Source: Patescibacteria group bacterium
GTDB taxonomy: Bacteria > Patescibacteriota > Minisyncoccia > UBA6257 > 02-FULL-45-10c
Direction: 5' to 3'
DNA: 46,835 bases
Assembly: GCA_028865335.1 (NCBI GenBank)
Contig: JAGWKK010000001.1
Span: forward strand, 1-46,835
A model generated the notes under the pieces. It saw only the letters and a list, made by a program, of their open reading frames with translations, did not search any database and was not told where the DNA came from. Shown piece by piece: positions 3,453 through 38,907 of this stretch; positions within the stretch are counted from its first letter, which is position 1, and the number at the start of each line of letters is the position of its first letter. A program made the translations under genes and the position numbers.

Positions 3453-4466
3453 TTATGCGATGCAATACTGCTGGCCCAATTCTTTTATTATACCTTTAAT
3501 GCTCAGCAAGGCGAGCGCCTGGTTGACTTCCGTGATGTCCTTGCCGGTTTTTTCAGCGATGGCATCGGCGGTGGCGGATCCTCCGGCATCGCGGATGGCG
3601 ATGACGATGTCGCGCTCGTCTCCCGTGACCAGATCTTCCGGAGATGCGCCCTGATGTTCCGTCAGGCCGTAGTGTTCCAGGATGTCTTCCGGTTCGGTGA
3701 CCAGCATCGCGCCGCTTTTGATGAGCGCATGGGATCCTTTGTAATTCGTGAGCTGGGTACTTCCCGGGATGACGAAGATGTCGCGGTTCTGTTCCAGGGC
3801 GAAGCGCGCGGTGGCGAGAGAGCCGGACCGCTCGGGCGCTTCGATGATCAGCGCTCCGGTCGAGAGTCCGCTGATGATGCGGTTGCGGACCAGGAAGTTG
3901 GACGGATTGTATCCGTGGCCGAATGCGAATTCGGAAACAATCGCTCCGCCGCTCTTAAGGATTTCGTCCGCAAGCCGGACATGGGCGCGGGGATAGATAT
4001 AGTCGAGCGGCGTGCCGAGGATGGCGATGGTCTTGCCGCCGACATCCAGTGCACCGCGGTGCGCTTCGGCATCGACACCGAGCGCGAGTCCGCTGATGAT
4101 CGGCACGCCGGCTCCGGCGAGCGCCGTTGCGAATGATTTCGCGAGTGTTTTGCCATGCGGAGTCGCCGCGCGGGTTCCTACGACCGCGATGGCGGGCTGA
4201 GCATAGGCGATATCGCCAAGGACATAGAGGCCGTGGGGCGGAAAGGGGATTTCCCGCAGAAGCGCGGGATATTCCGGATCATCTTTCAGGATGAGCCGGA
4301 CGCCCAGCTTGGCGACAGGCGCGAATGACTGCTCTGGATCGGGCGCATCCTTGGTGGCCGCCCACGATTCCTTCCAGGATCTGTGTTTTTCAAAAAGCTT
4401 CGCGAGCTTGCCGTGGTTTCCCTTCAGCCCGATCGCGAGCGCATTATAATAGAAAGCTTCATGCAT
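3453..4466 (-). CDS. dprA: DNA-processing protein DprA (natural transformation)
   Basis: 337 aa. Rossmann-like DprA core with GLALGVDAEAHRGAL and IVSEFAFG motifs, plus a C-terminal winged-helix-like tail. Confidence 0.9.
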   Translation of the reverse strand: MHEAFYYNALAIGLKGNHGKLAKLFEKHRSWKESWAATKDAPDPEQSFAPVAKLGVRLILKDDPEYPALLREIPFPPHGLYVLGDIAYAQPAIAVVGTRAATPHGKTLAKSFATALAGAGVPIISGLALGVDAEAHRGALDVGGKTIAILGTPLDYIYPRAHVRLADEILKSGGAIVSEFAFGHGYNPSNFLVRNRIISGLSTGALIIEAPERSGSLATARFALEQNRDIFVIPGSTQLTNYKGSHALIKSGAMLVTEPEDILEHYGLTEHQGASPEDLVTGDERDIVIAIRDAGGSATADAIAEKTGKDITEVNQALALLSIKGIIKELGQQYCIA

Positions 4467-5501: not shown

Positions 5502-5573
5502 GGGTGACTAGTTCAGTGGTAGAACGCTGTCCTGATAAGACAGAGGTCGCAGGTTCGATTCCTGCGTCACCCA
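5502..5573 (+). tRNA. tRNA-Ile (anticodon GAT)
   Basis: Manual cloverleaf: acceptor gggtgac/gtcaccc, D stem gttc/gaac, anticodon stem ctgtc/gacag with loop ctGATaa, T arm gcagg-ttcgatt-cctgc, discriminator A. CCA is not encoded. Confidence 0.9.
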
Positions 5574-5580
5574 CAAATAT

Positions 5581-5607
5581 AAAAAACCGGACTTGTTCCG
5601 GTTTTTT
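5581..5607. terminator. rho-independent terminator, bidirectional shape
   Basis: aaaaaaccgga-cttgt-tccggtttttt: a 5-bp GC stem flanked by an A6 run and a T6 run. Confidence 0.7.
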
Positions 5608-5610
5608 ATA

Positions 5611-5761
5611 TTTTGCGCAGGAATCGAACCAGCCGCACCCCATATCAGGAAGGAATGGGAAACCGCAGGTGTCCCAGAAGGGGGTCGGGGTGCGGCGTGG
5701 TTCGAGTGAGCGAGCGGGCTATCCAGCCGCGAGTGAAACTTTCATTCCTGCGTCACCCACA
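5611..5761 (+). repeat. structured module bounded by inverted and direct copies of the tRNA-Ile 3' end
   Basis: 5615-5630 gcgcaggaatcgaacc is the reverse complement of the tRNA T arm (15/16 match). 5744-5761 attcctgcgtcacccaca repeats tRNA positions 5558-5575 exactly (18 nt). Inside, cgaaccagccgcacccc pairs with ggggtgcggcgtggttcg. A gggaaacc...gtccc hairpin is homologous to the module at 33436-33572. Confidence 0.7.
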
Positions 5762-6464: not shown

Positions 6465-6565
6465 GCGCGTTTAGCCCCTGCCTTCGGTAGACAGGCCTGC
6501 CTGCCGGCAGGCAGGTCAGTAGGTAGAGCGGTCGCCGACGGCGACAGGTCGGAGAAAGGTTCTTT
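6465..6565 (+). pseudogene. decayed copy of tRNA-Val(GAC) with 40 nt of palindromic units in the D arm
   Basis: gcgcgtttagc + [6476-6515 insert] + tcagtaggtagagcg parallels gcgcccttagctcagtggtagagcg of the intact tRNA at 6584. An anticodon-like gtcg-ccGACgg-cgac follows. The T arm is degenerate and there is no 3' acceptor strand. Confidence 0.55.
6476..6515. repeat. tandem pair of palindromic units: degenerate unit (6476-6495) then perfect unit (6496-6515), copy 2
   Basis: 6496-6515 is exactly cctgcctgccggcaggcagg. 6476-6495 ccctgccttcggtagacagg resembles the variant at 11431. Confidence 0.85.
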
Positions 6566-8200: not shown

Positions 8201-8220
8201 CCTGCCTGCCGGCAGGCAGG
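8201..8220. repeat. 20-nt perfect palindrome, copy 3 (24-nt palindrome with flanks, 8199-8222)
   Basis: cggcgctcga|cctgcctgccggcaggcagg|tctagtgac. The paralogous sequence at 20733-20762 (reverse complement cggcgctcga|tctggtgac) lacks exactly these 20 nt. Confidence 0.9.
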
Positions 8221-11974: not shown

Positions 11975-12035
11975 CAATGCGCAGGTGGCGAAACTGGCAG
12001 ACCTGCCTGCCGGCAGGCAGGCGCACTACCTGAGG
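11975..12035 (+). pseudogene. duplicated 5' half of tRNA-Leu (through the anticodon loop), interrupted by the 20-nt palindrome
   Basis: caatgcgcaggtggcgaaactggcaga[20-nt palindrome]cgcactacc-tgagg, compared with caatgcgcaggtggcgaaactggcagacgcactaccttgagg at 12289-12330. There is no 3' half. Confidence 0.8.
12002..12021. repeat. 20-nt perfect palindrome, copy 4
   Basis: Exact cctgcctgccggcaggcagg. The intact tRNA-Leu lacks it between 12315 and 12316. Confidence 0.9.
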
Positions 12036-12046
12036 CGACAGAATAT

Positions 12047-12328
12047 ATGTATTCTGATTACGTTCTCAAAAGTATCAAGCGCTCTTATTTGTATGTCGGA
12101 ATGACGAATAATATTAATCGTCGTTTTTTTCAACACCAGTATGGCCGCGAAAAAACTACCGCGCCCTATCGACCATTTAAACTGCTCATTGTTGAAAAAT
12201 ATGATACGCGTAAATCGGCACGAGTTCGTGAAAAGTATCTAAAATCAGGAGTTGGCAAAGAGTGGATAAAGAGGTATGATTTTGAGCACAATGCGCAGGT
12301 GGCGAAACTGGCAGACGCACTACCTTGA
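12047..12328 (+). CDS. small stand-alone GIY-YIG (URI-domain) nuclease family protein, 93 aa
   Basis: MYSDYVLKSIKRSYLYVGMTNNINRRFFQHQYG...PFKLLIVEKYDTRKSARVREKYLKSGVG fits the GIY..YIG..R..H..G...E pattern. The start was trimmed to the first ATG after the tRNA fragment. The last 12 codons and the stop lie inside the tRNA-Leu gene. The gene looks AT-richer than its neighbours by eye. Confidence 0.75.
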   Translation: MYSDYVLKSIKRSYLYVGMTNNINRRFFQHQYGREKTTAPYRPFKLLIVEKYDTRKSARVREKYLKSGVGKEWIKRYDFEHNAQVAKLADALP

Positions 12329-12376
12329 GGTGGTAGCGCCCGCAAGGGCTTGGAGGTTCGAATCCTCTCCTGCGCA
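12293..12376 (+). tRNA. tRNA-Leu (anticodon GAG), type II with a long variable arm
   Basis: Acceptor gcgcagg/cctgcgc, anticodon stem ctacc/ggtag with loop ttGAGgt, variable arm cgcccgcaagggct, T arm ggagg-ttcgaat-cctct, discriminator A. Confidence 0.9.
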
Positions 12377-12466
12377 CAAAGTATAAATGACCGAAGTCCG
12401 TCCGGTTGTGCAATTCATGGGCTTTATCAGAAACGAGCAGGAAAAAGGCTGATTGGGTCGCATGTT

Positions 12467-34970: not shown

Positions 34971-36038
34971 ATGCAAAAGCAGGACATCGCGCATCTCGCG
35001 CAGGAAGCGAAAAAATCCATCCAATCCGCGAAGACCGCGGCTGAATTGGAGGCCTTGCGCGTGCGGTTCATCGGCCGGAAGGATGGTGAGGTCACGAAGC
35101 TGATGAAACAGCTGCCGGCGCTGTCGGTGGAGGATCGGCGGACGGTAGGTCCTGCGCTCAATGCGCTGAAGAACGAAGTGGAACAGCTCCTGACTGCGCG
35201 CGTGAAGGATCTCGCCGATGAGGCGGATCGGCGCCAGGCGATCGATGTGACGATGCCGGGCAAGAAAGTGGCGACCGGTCATTTGCATCCGCTGACGCTG
35301 GTGGAACGGGAGATCCGCGACGTGTTCAAGGCGATGAACTTTTCGGTGGTGGAGGGTCCCGAAGTGGAATCCGAACACTATAATTTTGACGCGCTCAATA
35401 TTCCGGCGAATCATCCGGCGCGGGATATGTGGGATACGTTTTGGTTAGCGACAAGTGACAAGCGACAAGCGACAAGTAAGAAAAATAACATGTCCCATGT
35501 CGCTGACCGCCTTTTACTAAGGACGCACACGAGTCCGGTACAGATCCGCTATATGGAACAGCACCAGCCGCCGTTTCAGATCGTGGTTCCGGGACGCGTG
35601 TTCCGGTACGAGGCGACCGACGCTTCCCATGAGATCAATTTCTATCAGGTGGAAGGGCTGATGGTGGGGAAGGATGTGACGCTCGCGAATTTCAAGTTCG
35701 TCATCGGCGAGTTTTTCAAACGGCTGTTCAAAAAGGACGTTTCGATCCGGCTGCGCCCGAGCTATTTCCCGTTCGTGGAACCGGGACTGGACGTGGATGT
35801 GGAGTGCGTGAAATGCGGCGGCAAAGGATGCAATATCTGCAAAGACAGCGGCTGGCTGGAAGTGATGGGCGCCGGCATGGTGCATCCGCATGTGTTCGAA
35901 GCGGCGGGATACGGACCGCATGAATACCAGGGATTCGCGTTCGGACTGGGCCTGGAACGCATTGCCATGATCAAATACAACATTCCCGACATCCGGCTGT
36001 TCTACTCCGGCGATTTGCGGTTCATTAAACAATTCTAA
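34971..36038 (+). CDS. pheS: phenylalanine--tRNA ligase alpha subunit
   Basis: 355 aa. HPARDMWDTFW, LLRTHTSPVQIRYM and class II motif 3 GAGMVHPHV...GFAFGLGLERIAM. Confidence 0.95.
   Translation: MQKQDIAHLAQEAKKSIQSAKTAAELEALRVRFIGRKDGEVTKLMKQLPALSVEDRRTVGPALNALKNEVEQLLTARVKDLADEADRRQAIDVTMPGKKVATGHLHPLTLVEREIRDVFKAMNFSVVEGPEVESEHYNFDALNIPANHPARDMWDTFWLATSDKRQATSKKNNMSHVADRLLLRTHTSPVQIRYMEQHQPPFQIVVPGRVFRYEATDASHEINFYQVEGLMVGKDVTLANFKFVIGEFFKRLFKKDVSIRLRPSYFPFVEPGLDVDVECVKCGGKGCNICKDSGWLEVMGAGMVHPHVFEAAGYGPHEYQGFAFGLGLERIAMIKYNIPDIRLFYSGDLRFIKQF
35450..35477. repeat. heptamer array gacaagt-gacaagc-gacaagc-gacaagt (4 x 7 nt) inside pheS
   Basis: Encodes part of ATSDKRQATSKK in the variable loop between the FWL and LLRTHTS motifs. 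Confidence 0.85.
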
Positions 36039-36340
36039 TCCCACACATAACTTACACTGCTTTCCATTATGTTCCACGTATATTTATTACAATCTTTGAA
36101 GAACAAATCCTTATATGTAGGCTATACTTCCGACTCGGAAAGACGCCTTAAGGAACATAATGGAAACGAGTCCGGCTATACGAAGAAATATAGCCCGTGG
36201 GAATTGGTATATTGTGAAGGATATAAATCGGAAAAAGATGCTCGGGGTCGCGAGCAGAAATTAAAACTGCACGCACAGGGATTGCGAAGGTTGAAAGAAA
36301 GACTTCGCGAGAGCCTTACGGTGTAAGTTATGTGTGGGAT
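36038..36340 (+). mobile_element. 303-bp cassette: GIY-YIG ORF enclosed by perfect 20-bp terminal inverted repeats
   Basis: 36038-36057 atcccacacataacttacac is the exact reverse complement of 36321-36340 gtgtaagttatgtgtgggat. The left repeat starts at the last base of the pheS stop codon. The right repeat ends at the second base of ATG 36339 of the next ORF, overlapping that start codon by 2 nt. Confidence 0.6.
36069..36326 (+). CDS. small stand-alone GIY-YIG nuclease family protein, 85 aa
   Basis: MFHVYLLQSLKNKSLYVGYTSDSERRLKEHNGNESGYTKKYSPWELVYCEGYKSEKDARGREQKLK fits the GIY-YIG/URI pattern. AT-richer than pheS and pheT by eye. Confidence 0.75.
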   Translation: MFHVYLLQSLKNKSLYVGYTSDSERRLKEHNGNESGYTKKYSPWELVYCEGYKSEKDARGREQKLKLHAQGLRRLKERLRESLTV

Positions 36341-36788
36341 GGAAACTCCGGAGAAAAAAATACCGATGCAGGAACATACTGAGTCGGAACACGAAGCTCA
36401 CCTGATTGAGCAGGCGCGGAATGATATGGCCGCTTTACAGGAGAAATCCCTTCATGCGATTGATGAAAAGAAAACAACGAAAGAAGAGCCGTTGCTTCTG
36501 TATCATCTCGACCGCATCCGTTTGGATACCGTTGATGCCGCCCTGGCTCATCTTTACGATCTCGCGAAGAATGCGACCGGGGAAGTTGCGTACAGAATCT
36601 TTATGAACGACCTTAAGAATTACCGCTTGAGTAAACTTGCGGGAAGGACTGAAGGGGCAACGAGAAGCGAGACTACTGATGAAGAAAAATCAATCGGAGC
36701 CATTCTTGATTATCTGAGCAATCTCGGGGCGGGGATCATAGCCCGGACATACGCGCAAGAAGACGCCGAAAAAGCAAAAAAGAACTAA
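36339..36788 (+). CDS. hypothetical acidic protein (149 aa) between pheS and pheT
   Basis: Open frame with no recognisable family. The start is uncertain (36339 or ATG 36366). Confidence 0.45.
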   Translation: METPEKKIPMQEHTESEHEAHLIEQARNDMAALQEKSLHAIDEKKTTKEEPLLLYHLDRIRLDTVDAALAHLYDLAKNATGEVAYRIFMNDLKNYRLSKLAGRTEGATRSETTDEEKSIGAILDYLSNLGAGIIARTYAQEDAEKAKKN

Positions 36789-36791
36789 CCT

Positions 36792-38759
36792 ATGAAATTC
36801 AGTTTTTCACTCATCAAACGGATAGCTCCCGGATCGTACGGGAAGGAGGAATTGGTGGAGCGGCTGAACCTGCATTCCTTTGAGGCGGTTGATCTGGGCG
36901 GCGACGTGCTGGAAATCGCGGTGACGCCGAACCGGTTCGCCGATGCGGCATCGCATATCGGTATCGCGCGCGAAGCGGCGGCGATTTTCAACCTGCCGTT
37001 TTCCGATCCTGCCGAGAAAGCCCCGAAGTATGCCTATCGCGACCAGGGCGTGTTCCGCGTGAATATCAAAAACAGCAAGCTGTGCCGGCGCTATATGGCG
37101 GCATATGTGGACGGCGTATCGGTGAAGAAGACGCCGGAGTGGATGAAGGGCGTTCTGGAGTCCTGCGGCCTCCGTTCCATCAACGCGGTGGTGGATATCA
37201 TGAACTACGTCATGCTGGAAGTCGGACAGCCGCTCCATGCGTTCGATGCCGAGAAGGTGAGCGGCGGACTGACGGTCCGGAACGCGAAGAAAGGGGAGAA
37301 GATCGAAACAATCGACAATCAGAAATTCACGCTTGATTCTGACGTGCTGGTGATCGCTGATGCCGATAAGCCGCTCGCCATTGCCGGTATCAAAGGAGGA
37401 AAATCAAGCGAAGTCACGCTGGGGACGAAGCACCTGCTGGTTGAGGCGGCGCATTTTGACAGTACGCATATCTATGCGACGTCGCGCCGGCTGGGATTGC
37501 AGACGGACGCTTCCGCGCGCTTTGCGCATGCATTGAGTCCGGCGCTCGTGGAACGCGGCATGAACCGCGCACTGCAGCTGCTGCAGGAGATCGTCGGAGC
37601 GAAGGCGCACCGGCCGGCGGATGACTATCCGCGGCCGCAGTCCAAGGAAATCCTGCCGTTCTCGGCGACCGCGATGCAGCGGCTTCTCGGAGAACATGTC
37701 ACGGCCGACGGCGCTGCGCGCCTGCTGAAGAAACTGGGGTTCGCAATCCGCGGAAAGAAGATCGAGGTGCCCCTGGTCCGTACGGACGTCAGCGACGTCG
37801 AGGACATCGCGGAGGAAGTCGCCCGTATGAAGGGGTATGCCGCATTGACCGCGCAGCCGCCGCACGTGGCGCTGGGGGTCGCGTCCGAAGACGAACTCAT
37901 AGAATTCAAGGATCAGATCCGTGATTTTCTGACCGGTGTCGGTTACAGCGAAACATACAATTACTCACTCGTCGCCGAATCCGACTGCAGCCGCTCGCCG
38001 GCCATCATCCGGAGCCGCGACGGAAAAGTGATCCATCTCGCGAATCCGATGAGCGCCGAGATCGCCGTGCTCCGCGACAGTCTGGCGGCAGGCCTGGTGA
38101 AAAATCTCAAGAGCAACAAACGCTTCTTTGACGCGGTCCGCGTATTTGAAATCGGCCACGTGTTCCAGGAACTGCAGGGGAAGGTGTCCGAAAAGACGGT
38201 TCTCGGCATGGCGATCGCCGCGCCGGAGGGCTTCTTTGAAGTGAAAGGGATTGTGGATATGCTGCTGAAGCGCCTGGGGGTGACGGATTATACATTGGCA
38301 CCGTTTGATAATGCCGACGGCTATCTGAAGCCGCTTGGCGCGCTGACCATCGAAATCGGCAGGAAATCCGTCGGATATATCGGATCGCTGGCATCGCTGG
38401 AAGGCGGACTGATGGAATTGGACCTTGGGATGCTGCTTGCGGAGACCGACGAAGAGCGCGAATACGCGCCGATCGCGAAGTATCCGGCGATTGAACGCGA
38501 CCTGTCGTTCTTAGTGGACCAGAGCGTCCGCGTCGGCGAGATTCTGGCGCTGATGCAGGGTGCAGGCGTTCATCTGGTTGAAGATGTCGACCTGGTGGAC
38601 TGGTATCAGGATGAAAAACTGGGCGACCACATGAAGAGTCTGACGTTTAGGATCGTGTTCCGCGCCGATGACCGGACGCTGACAGATGCGGAAGTGGACA
38701 AGGAAATGGCGGCGATCACGAAGGCGGTTGTCGACAAATTTGATGTCGAATTGAGGTAA
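36792..38759 (+). CDS. pheT: phenylalanine--tRNA ligase beta subunit (short form)
   Basis: 655 aa with B3/4, B5 and FDX-ACB-like C-terminal regions (…DLSFLVD…SLTFRIVFRADDRTLTDAEV). Confidence 0.9.
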   Translation: MKFSFSLIKRIAPGSYGKEELVERLNLHSFEAVDLGGDVLEIAVTPNRFADAASHIGIAREAAAIFNLPFSDPAEKAPKYAYRDQGVFRVNIKNSKLCRRYMAAYVDGVSVKKTPEWMKGVLESCGLRSINAVVDIMNYVMLEVGQPLHAFDAEKVSGGLTVRNAKKGEKIETIDNQKFTLDSDVLVIADADKPLAIAGIKGGKSSEVTLGTKHLLVEAAHFDSTHIYATSRRLGLQTDASARFAHALSPALVERGMNRALQLLQEIVGAKAHRPADDYPRPQSKEILPFSATAMQRLLGEHVTADGAARLLKKLGFAIRGKKIEVPLVRTDVSDVEDIAEEVARMKGYAALTAQPPHVALGVASEDELIEFKDQIRDFLTGVGYSETYNYSLVAESDCSRSPAIIRSRDGKVIHLANPMSAEIAVLRDSLAAGLVKNLKSNKRFFDAVRVFEIGHVFQELQGKVSEKTVLGMAIAAPEGFFEVKGIVDMLLKRLGVTDYTLAPFDNADGYLKPLGALTIEIGRKSVGYIGSLASLEGGLMELDLGMLLAETDEEREYAPIAKYPAIERDLSFLVDQSVRVGEILALMQGAGVHLVEDVDLVDWYQDEKLGDHMKSLTFRIVFRADDRTLTDAEVDKEMAAITKAVVDKFDVELR

Positions 38760-38907
38760 AAATGACCCTGAAAAACCGTCCACAGGAGGCGGTTTTTTTG
38801 TTTGCGTTGAGGTGCTGTTTTTGCTATACTGATAGGGTACAAAAAGAGGGAAAAGGCGTGGCCTTTTTTAGGTTGAGGCGCATAATCTTACTTATTTTTT
38901 TATCACC

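Follow-up and report, generated by a model that had tools for sequence, protein, structure and literature searches.

What is a gene for an 85-residue nuclease doing inside a perfect inverted repeat whose first base is also the last of the pheS stop codon and whose end lies within the start codon of the next reading frame? This arrangement lies in a 46,835-nt stretch of DNA from a Patescibacteria group bacterium (assembly GCA_028865335.1, contig JAGWKK010000001.1, positions 1 to 46,835 of the forward strand), which we call, at its full length, the window. Taken as a whole, the locus is best explained if positions 36039–36339 are taken as a mobile element that is very small and still intact, a reading that we consider likely. 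The element has moved many times, has non-autonomous derivatives, and rebuilds the downstream start codon when it lands. It apparently belongs to an undescribed family that occupies start codons, gene junctions and rRNA genes in many Patescibacteria.

The two arms of the repeat, ATCCCACACATAACTTACAC (36038–36057) and GTGTAAGTTATGTGTGGGAT (36321–36340), are complementary at 20 of 20 positions and have 263 nt between them; all features of this unit lie on the + strand. Upstream, pheS (34971–36038; Pfam tRNA-synt_2d, E 3e-100) ends in a TAA at 36036–36038 that abuts the element core, with its last A serving as base 1 of the 20-nt repeat. An 11-nt spacer (36058–36068), in which no Shine-Dalgarno-like sequence precedes the nuclease ATG, leads to the GIY-YIG nuclease gene (36069–36326). 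The first 6 nt of the right arm are the final nuclease codon and its TAA stop (36324–36326). As in the rest of the main family, the right arm also contains an ATG in frame with the host gene (36330 in the window, giving MCGM...), and it ends on the AT of the ATG at 36339, where a 149-aa host ORF begins (36339–36788). This orphan ORF is lineage-restricted, has no Pfam family and retrieves only itself in a protein database homologue search. It, rather than pheT (36792–38759, same operon as pheS), is the gene directly after the element. The coordinates of repeats, spacer, ORF and stop/start overlaps had been given in a sequence-only reading of the locus, and all are exact.

The element proper spans 36039–36339, about 300 bp (301–303 bp), and has as its boundaries two 19-bp terminal inverted repeats, TCCCACACATAACTTACAC, the left one at 36039–36057; the last base of the element is the A of the host ATG. 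The 20-mer ATCCCACACATAACTTACAC occurs at just two places in the window, even when 3 mismatches are allowed, and gives zero matches in 100 shuffles. The GC content is 39–46% over the unit versus 55–66% in pheS and pheT, in line with the impression, gained earlier by eye, that the nuclease ORF is AT-richer than its neighbors. A promoter/terminator scan of the + strand shows no promoter-like or terminator-like site inside the element, and the first terminator-like site after it is at 38770–38798, beyond pheT. Within the element, Rfam models, applied at the gathering threshold and at E values up to 10, match neither an intron nor a ribozyme nor any other family. Two simpler identities were considered for the structure and rejected: an integron attC cassette, as there is no integrase and the repeats stand on both sides of the ORF, and a terminator or attenuator, as a T-run is absent.

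The site without the element is preserved in a relative. The nearest PheS in the databases (76% identity) is encoded at L052 (GCA_018969615.1; L-numbers designate loci in other assemblies), where the gene order is the same as in the window: PKD-domain protein, pheS, a 139-aa ORF, pheT, a small ORF and gyrB. The L052 junction is element-free and reads ...caattcTAAttATGGAACAT..., i.e. ...caattcTAAttATGGAACATCCTGAAAAA, while the window reads ...caattcTAA, then the element (TCCCAC...GTGGGA), then TGGAAACTCCGGAGAAAAA; in short, TAAttATGGAA in L052 corresponds to TAA, element, TGGAA in the window. The ORFs that follow are orthologous and syntenic, with 29% identity. Because the L052 orthologue begins MEHPEK and the window ORF METPEK, ATG 36339, rebuilt by the element, is probably the true start of the orphan ORF, and the public (NCBI) annotation, which begins it at ATG 36366 (140 aa), 27 nt downstream, would be too late. 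A second relative, L056, reads pheS TGAtATG pheT, with neither orphan ORF nor element. The clean insertion at a gene boundary that the sequence-only reading had proposed, and the empty sites that it expected in relatives, are thus both found. The position of the pheS stop is unchanged in L052, L054 and L056. At L054/L055 (Harrisonbacteria, PheS 73%), a 131-nt, ORF-less, decayed element with arms TCCCTCACCCTTGAAGGAT occupies positions 4078–4208, exactly from the pheS TAA to the (A)TG of pheT, and keeps a remnant of the nuclease AQGLR codons. It is a member of the same superfamily with different arms, and the pheS–pheT junction has therefore been struck at least twice in related lineages.

Elements with the same arms are found far from pheS. 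The window holds a single such locus, and a metagenome search with the exact 20-mer returned 26 loci; other repeat-flanked GIY-YIG genes are present in other assemblies. Nucleases 78–86% identical to the window's are enclosed by exactly the same arms in unrelated housekeeping neighborhoods, co-directional with their neighbors: at the junction of NYN and pnp (L002–L007), upstream of an intein-containing gyrA (L001), and at the junction of holB with a small ORF and frr (L008/L009). Full-length copies with slightly different arms lie between nusA and tig (L068) and between folD and dagK (L058–L067). Altogether, full-length copies occupy 11 gene junctions, all co-directional with the host genes (P = 5e-4 under random orientation), and their nuclease genes have diverged to 61–85% DNA identity; the 19-bp arms show no difference among 8 distinct full-length copies and hardly any among 14 short ones. 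In all, the copies lie between more than 25 distinct pairs of flanks. The suggestion of a selfish cassette that colonizes gene boundaries is borne out by these sites together with derivatives resembling MITEs (miniature transposable elements that have inverted repeats), described below. A scan of viral contigs with the 19-mer gave 0 matches and hence no sign of a phage vector. Other selfish elements were seen beside cassette copies (L001 4256–7951; L003 362–994; L058 1–105), among them the intein in the gyrA directly downstream and, nearby, LAGLIDADG genes and a phage-type integrase.

What happens to the target on insertion was read from 27 distinct copies, all turned until the nuclease, or what is left of it, ran from left to right (with 8 aligned full-length copies, a modest sample). 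In 26 of the 27, the right end GGGA/TG (GGGG/TG in L058) creates an ATG or GTG followed by an open frame of 19–1231 codons, several of which run off their contigs; the exception, L015, lies in non-coding DNA. The rebuilt starts include those of pnp, gyrA, tig and pheT, and the N-termini agree with homologs. A 4-bp repeat that includes the host start codon flanks 16 of the 27 copies (TGAA in 14, TGGA in L008 and TGAG in L030). Its sequence differs by site, which marks it as a duplication of the target rather than as element sequence. In these copies the element is the symmetric TCCCACAC...GTGTGGGA, and its last A, together with the duplicated TG, rebuilds the start codon. L037 has TTGAA as the left copy of its duplication and ATGAA as the right. 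Variant-arm copies and bare hairpins add the duplications TCAA, TAAA and TTTA. With the exception of TGAG, all conform to T-N-N-A, and for this reason the repeat gives the impression of 20 bp instead of 19.

The remaining major class (9 of 27 copies, the window's included) has the form TAA/TCCC...GGGA/TG with no duplication, so that the earlier statement that the element lacks a target-site duplication holds for the window copy and fails for the family. In five of the nine (window, L002, L039, L051 and L010), and also in L054, the TAA is the genuine stop of a long upstream gene, and before insertion such a site would have been a stop/start junction of the TAATG type. Either class can be described by one cut 5' of a T in each strand, the two cuts being 4 or 0 bp apart. 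Three other accounts of the junctions were rejected: a 2-bp AT duplication at TAATG leaves the ATGAA..ATGAA copies unexplained, an element-borne ATGAA conflicts with the site-specific TGGA and TGAG duplications, and an IS200/IS605-style insertion beside a fixed tetranucleotide conflicts with the occurrence of the same arms next to different flanks.

The geometry of insertion also reaches into the nuclease gene. When a TGNN sequence is duplicated at a start codon, the left host ATG reads on into the arm as ATG NNT CCC ACA CAT AAC TTA CAC. In L068 and L058 this captured frame runs directly into the nuclease, giving MNPTHNYRQYFVYV... and MKMNPTHNLQYVY..., respectively. A start of the form MNPTHNL..., i.e. 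host ATG, duplication and left arm in frame, is present in 12–14 of 120 homolog clusters, and the variants MSPTHNLH and MHPTHK are those expected from TGAG and TGCA duplications. In copies with an ATG of their own, such as the window clade, the captured frame is closed by a TGA that directly follows the arm and precedes the nuclease ATG by 8 nt. At the other end, the nuclease stop codon lies within the right arm in every subfamily, 10–13 nt upstream of the regenerated host ATG.

The protein is a minimal member of its fold. The ORF matches Pfam GIY-YIG (PF01541) with E 2e-16 and 60.4 bits versus a cutoff of 22.6, which confirms its original assignment, and among 21–24 homologs Y16, G18, R26, H30 and E62 are invariant while Y5 and N31 are at least 90% conserved; the window protein retains Y5, Y16, R26, H30 and E62. 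An AF2 model (pLDDT 92) shows a beta-beta-alpha-beta-alpha fold followed by a long basic C-terminal helix, whose codons, HAQGLRRLKERL at 36240–36300 in the window, are in the window and its homologs the most conserved part of the gene. The protein belongs to the Slx1/UPF0213 branch: Foldseek ranks UPF0213 (1zg2) together with Slx1 at the top (E 1e-3 to 1e-2, 33–40% identity), with I-TevI and UvrC at E >0.3, and a PDB sequence search is likewise closest to UPF0213 (1zg2, 1ywl) and Slx1. Neither Pfam nor the model reveals a DNA-binding or NUMOD domain, the 85 residues being catalytic domain only. No NCBIfam family scores above its cutoff, and an exact-protein lookup found no identical protein on record. 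The nuclease is the only ORF in the element; no DDE, HUH, serine or tyrosine transposase is encoded there.

More distant relatives share the design. A scan of a genome collection with the single window protein listed relatives at 55% identity or less, and among the matches listed, nucleases 46–55% identical to the window's also lie within inverted repeats of 19–26 bp, in metagenome-assembled genomes (MAGs) of Omnitrophota, Amesbacteria, Uhrbacteria, Campbellbacteria, Saccharibacteria and Staskawiczbacteria. Their inner arm sequences vary yet remain fully complementary, and their termini share YCCCNCAC. The Omnitrophota copy, L010, reproduces the window arrangement, in that the TAA of a 419-codon ORF abuts TCCC and a 161-codon ORF begins at GGGA/TG. 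The host range found is mainly Patescibacteria, plus this one Omnitrophota MAG. Two of the cassettes, L011 and L013 (the Amesbacteria and Campbellbacteria copies), lie inside 16S rRNA genes, with the Rfam SSU model spanning 1–1533 across them; in E. coli 16S numbering, we read the tip of helix 17 as replaced by the insert of L011. Non-intron GIY-YIG 'insertion sequences' have been reported in rRNA genes of the Candidate Phyla Radiation (CPR; PMC11270868), and L011 and L013 are evidently such insertions. As a separate observation, homologs outside the CPR (L017–L023, from Bacteroidota, Terriglobia, Akkermansia, Leptospirales, Desulfobulbaceae, Bifidobacteriaceae and Zixibacteria) have no such inverted repeats. 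Their small GIY-YIG genes lie at about 1250–1500 in most loci and at 125–198 in L020, and in 5 of the 7 loci the gene starts 3–52 nt past a tRNA gene, the gap being about 175–230 nt in L020 and L021.

Copies of the element fall into size classes of about 296–303 bp (intact ORF), about 199 bp (truncated ORF) and about 103–131 bp, and bare hairpins of 35–40 nt. Fourteen short copies of about 120 bp, oriented by their flanks and aligned to the full-length L044, all carry the same two internal deletions and retain the KSLYVG and REKSLKLH codons. They occupy at least 10 different sites. Because the same deletions recur at different sites, these copies spread after the deletions had arisen, which requires mobilization in trans. 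Bare hairpins with family termini were seen at L001 3894–3928, L046 1957–1996 and L047 6091–6128, two of the bare hairpins having 4-bp flanking repeats (TAAA and TTTA), and a 65-nt element with arms CCCCACACATAAAA is nested in another copy (L027 395–459).

The short copies also bear on an alternative, namely that the hairpin is a MITE-type transposon moved by an unlinked transposase, with the GIY-YIG gene as a passenger or a homing-type invader of its loop. ORF-less short copies outnumber full-length ones in the metagenome matches, hairpins exist with nothing inside them, and the nuclease has no DNA-binding domain; in the transposon Tsy, moreover, a GIY-YIG nuclease is dispensable (PMC10293859). 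Several features argue in the opposite direction. The short copies keep two recognizable pieces of the nuclease ORF and must therefore derive from full-length elements rather than the reverse, and the nuclease is the sole ORF of the full-length copies in every arm subfamily found. The ORF is further tied to the geometry of insertion, as certain copies lack their own start codon and are read from a captured host ATG through the arm. Nor is any insertion-sequence family with YCCCNCAC ends known to us. On this evidence, we consider the alternative unlikely.

A classical free-standing homing endonuclease gene, spreading between alleles by double-strand-break repair with the repeat being incidental, is suggested by the fold, which is a classic one among homing enzymes, and by a weak score, 17 bits versus a cutoff of 56, with TIGR01453, a model for endonucleases of group I introns. 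Such a gene would be expected neither at more than 20 places whose flanking gene pairs are unrelated nor within the target duplications that accompany 16 of the 27 copies, its 85 residues include no DNA-binding or NUMOD domain, the structure is nearest to Slx1/UPF0213 with I-TevI far weaker, and intron models find no match; we regard this origin as very improbable. Even less can be said for a resident host repair nuclease, inherited vertically and accompanied by a regulatory or terminator hairpin, which we hold to be improbable in the extreme. Its basis is a phylogenomic survey in which prokaryotic stand-alone Slx1-like GIY-YIG proteins were read as vertically inherited repair enzymes, with selfish GIY-YIG proteins coming from the UvrC lineage (PMC1564403). 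It is contradicted by the empty site in the nearest syntenic relative, L052, by the GC content of the unit relative to its flanking genes, by 78–86% identical nucleases in unrelated neighborhoods, by the existence of truncated derivatives and by the lack of a T run after the stem. Finally, repeats of 120–300 bp can mislead short-read assemblers, but an assembly or chimera artefact has practically no chance of explaining the locus, since the architecture recurs in assemblies made independently of different samples (NCBI MAGs, ENA, JGI and Logan), and the reading frames on both sides are intact there. One locus, L049, does combine a left flank and a truncated element that belong to the L040 locus (L040/L042) with the right flank of the L044 locus (L044/L048); either two copies have recombined, or the repeat has led the assembly into a chimera.

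To assess selection on the arms, their conservation was recomputed on four other copies, as the exact 20-mer search inflates it among the metagenome loci. In these four (window, L001, L002 and L008, found by protein similarity and not by the 20-mer), 38 of 38 arm columns are invariant versus 66% of the internal columns (P = 1.4e-7). Invariant columns at codon positions 1, 2 and 3 number 63, 74 and 29 of 84, respectively (35% for the third), so that the arms are constrained at least as strongly as second codon positions, and the nuclease ORF is, by the codon-position pattern of its substitutions, under purifying selection. Where the arms do mismatch, the sense strand shows 11 G·U pairs versus 1 A·C (P = 0.003), and all G·U pairs arise in the C/A-rich left arm. 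A bias of this kind would be predicted by selection for pairing in the transcript, not by a purely double-stranded DNA site. The sequence-only reading had likened the repeat to the helix of an rRNA intervening sequence (IVS) formed in the transcript, and both this bias and the cassettes inside 16S rRNA genes fit that likeness.

A second, inner stem points the same way. Its 5' strand (36056–36075, + strand) covers the nuclease ATG at 36069 and is complementary at 18 of 20 positions to its 3' strand (36152–36171, + strand), which contains the codons for E-H-N-G-N-E. RNAalifold, applied to the eight aligned copies, predicts a 12-bp inner helix between the nuclease start region (aTTATG) and the E-H-N codons, in which 89.6% of cells are paired versus 32–48% with a slid partner. 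Compensatory changes occur in 6 of the 12 pairs, and the observed score was reached in 0 of 500 shuffles. The window element as a whole folds with -111 kcal/mol (z = -8.9). These patterns show that outer and inner stems are both maintained on the sense strand and selected in RNA.

From these observations we can outline how the element may move and how its hosts may tolerate it. The nuclease may be the mobility enzyme, recognizing structured, conserved termini rather than a long target, a proposal on which we judge the evidence to be evenly poised. A Slx1-branch nuclease with no DNA-binding domain would probably recognize the hairpin or cruciform formed by the YCCCNCAC termini and would nick both target strands 5' of a T, at positions separated by 4 or 0 bp. 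Selection in gene-dense genomes would then leave mostly those insertions that restore a start codon, fall in spacers or sit at the tips of rRNA helices. Once in place, the window element would be co-transcribed with pheS, the downstream ORF and pheT, and the 20-bp RNA stem would loop out the insert and isolate it from the host message. Some form of neutralization at the RNA level seems to us somewhat more probable than the proposed role of the nuclease. One option is a translational relay, in which ribosomes that end the upstream ORF, or the nuclease ORF within the right arm, reinitiate at the regenerated AUG. The other is processing, in which the downstream message would be released by RNase III-type cleavage of the stem, much as happens with rRNA intervening sequences, and which is plausible for the rRNA copies; the relay is as good a reading as the cleavage. 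The inner stem, lying over the nuclease ATG, would hold nuclease translation low. In its fullest form, which we put forward tentatively and with less confidence than any of its parts, the proposal is that the family constitutes a new autonomous class of prokaryotic transposable element, among the smallest at about 300 bp. Its 85-residue Slx1-like transposase would act on the element's own hairpin or cruciform ends, and the element would be adapted to start codons, borrowing the host ribosome-binding site and ATG, returning a regenerated ATG by way of an mRNA stem, and acting as the source of the CPR rRNA insertions.

A number of points weigh against this proposal. The analysis is computational throughout, the 46.8-kb window contains one copy of the element, the window copy shows no target duplication and neither do the other eight of its class, and a search by exact 20-mer makes the arms of the metagenome loci look more conserved than they need be. 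Several cleavage geometries were tried that might unify the duplicated and non-duplicated classes, and none was convincing. A 4-bp target is far too weak by itself to account for a near-exclusive location at start codons, so post-insertion selection has to be invoked. The regenerated AUG is paired at the foot of a 20-bp stem, where initiation should be hindered unless the stem is opened or cut. We know of no precedent for a transposase that consists of nothing but a catalytic domain of 85 aa. Tsy is the only prokaryotic transposon that we found with a GIY-YIG component, and there the nuclease is a non-essential accessory (PMC10293859).

The window contains a second GIY-YIG cassette of a different type (11975–12377, + strand), with a 93-aa paralog (12047–12328) that is 39% identical to the pheS-linked nuclease; this is the tRNA-Leu-associated gene noticed in the sequence-only reading. 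The paralog is flanked by a perfect 28-nt direct repeat (11975–12002 = 12289–12316), which corresponds to the 5' part of tRNA-Leu(gag). The upstream 28-nt copy is a dead tRNA-Leu 5' half ending in the anticodon loop, and the 93-aa ORF runs into the intact tRNA-Leu (12293–12377) and stops at the TGA of the anticodon loop. Its residues HNAQVAKLADAL, the counterpart of the conserved C-terminal helix, have the tRNA's own 5' half as their coding sequence. The cassette looks like an anticodon-loop insertion that brought a replacement 5' half with it. An IVS-type four-helix-bundle (23S_rRNA_IVP) cassette, which had been listed as a third selfish unit, was not found among the 29 window ORFs scanned against Pfam. 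Two further repeats were noted. The perfect palindrome CCTGCCTGCC/GGCAGGCAGG occurs three times (6496–6515, 8201–8220 and 12002–12021), once inside the dead tRNA-Leu 5' half, and is a separate REP-like repeat family; and, at 5549–5633, the 3' part of tRNA-Ile, GCAGGTTCGATTCCTGCG, has an inverted copy 50 nt downstream, with a perfect 17-bp hairpin (5575–5613) between.

If the nuclease is indeed the mobility enzyme, it would represent a new catalytic class in prokaryotic transposition, and at least the CPR subgroup of the large, uncharacterized UPF0213/Slx1-like family would acquire a function. The puzzling GIY-YIG insertions of CPR rRNA genes would, if the proposal is true, be landings of a general element rather than rRNA-specific features. 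In genomes that are very small, the elements insert exactly at the start codons or stop/start junctions of operons that are essential (pheST, pnp, gyrA, tig, frr) and leave the genes undestroyed, and that such insertions are tolerated suggests neutralization at the RNA level, by a stem with either translational relay or processing. In practical terms, the elements shift start-codon calls and can cause assembly chimeras in CPR MAGs.

How does such an element compare with known systems? Like I-TevI and the Seg and Mob enzymes of T4, it is a selfish intergenic GIY-YIG gene in which RNA structure over the start codon would damp translation, but those proteins have at least 200 residues with DNA-binding modules, belong to the UvrC/homing endonuclease branch, and each targets one conserved site with no terminal repeats or duplication. 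Slx1 and UPF0213 (1zg2, 1ywl) are the best matches in both sequence and structure and share the minimal GIY-YIG core without the C-terminal Asn, and Slx1 cuts branched DNA of the kind that extruded inverted repeats would offer. In contrast to the window nuclease, Slx1 acts with Slx4 in repair, its bacterial homologs carry no functional assignment and have been regarded as vertically inherited, and none is known to be bounded by inverted repeats. The REP/REPIN–RAYT systems likewise combine a small gene between inverted palindromic repeats with dispersed, ORF-less intergenic hairpins. RAYTs are HUH (IS200/IS605-like) enzymes of about 150–300 aa, usually single-copy and vertically inherited, whereas the enzyme of the window family is a GIY-YIG protein with no HUH domain, its coding copy is itself dispersed, and 4-bp duplications accompany it.

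Small hairpin elements with terminal repeats are also known as Correia (Neisseria) and ERIC/IRU (enterobacteria) sequences, co-transcribed MITEs of 100–150 bp that have terminal inverted repeats and lie in transcribed intergenic regions, where they form long RNA hairpins processed by RNases, affect the expression of neighbors and create short target duplications. To our knowledge, they have no autonomous, nuclease-encoding parent and do not insert exactly on start codons, while the short copies of the window family are deletion derivatives of a 300-bp coding element. Nor do we know of any insertion-sequence family that uses a GIY-YIG enzyme. Full-text searches, whose coverage does not extend to subscription journals, turned up no account of terminal inverted repeats, target duplications or start-codon insertion for GIY-YIG genes, in agreement with the earlier suspicion that the element class was undescribed; the nearest reports are those of the CPR rRNA insertions (PMC11270868) and of the dispensable GIY-YIG accessory of Tsy (PMC10293859). 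Tsy shares with the window element a prokaryotic transposon setting for a GIY-YIG nuclease, but it moves into comM by means of tyrosine recombinases, and the window element encodes a nuclease only.

The rRNA intervening sequences and the CPR rRNA insertions resemble the element in a different respect, as each is a stem-closed insert in a host RNA, sometimes with a small ORF, and L011 and L013 place relatives of the window copy directly in 16S genes. Inverted repeats, duplications, copies outside rRNA and short derivatives do not figure in the report on the CPR insertions (PMC11270868). Removal by RNase III is a feature of the rRNA intervening sequences, and the window element may be cut in a like manner. 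The window copy differs from them in that it sits in an mRNA between protein genes and not in an rRNA helix, and in that it rebuilds a start codon, in a family where most copies are flanked by target duplications.

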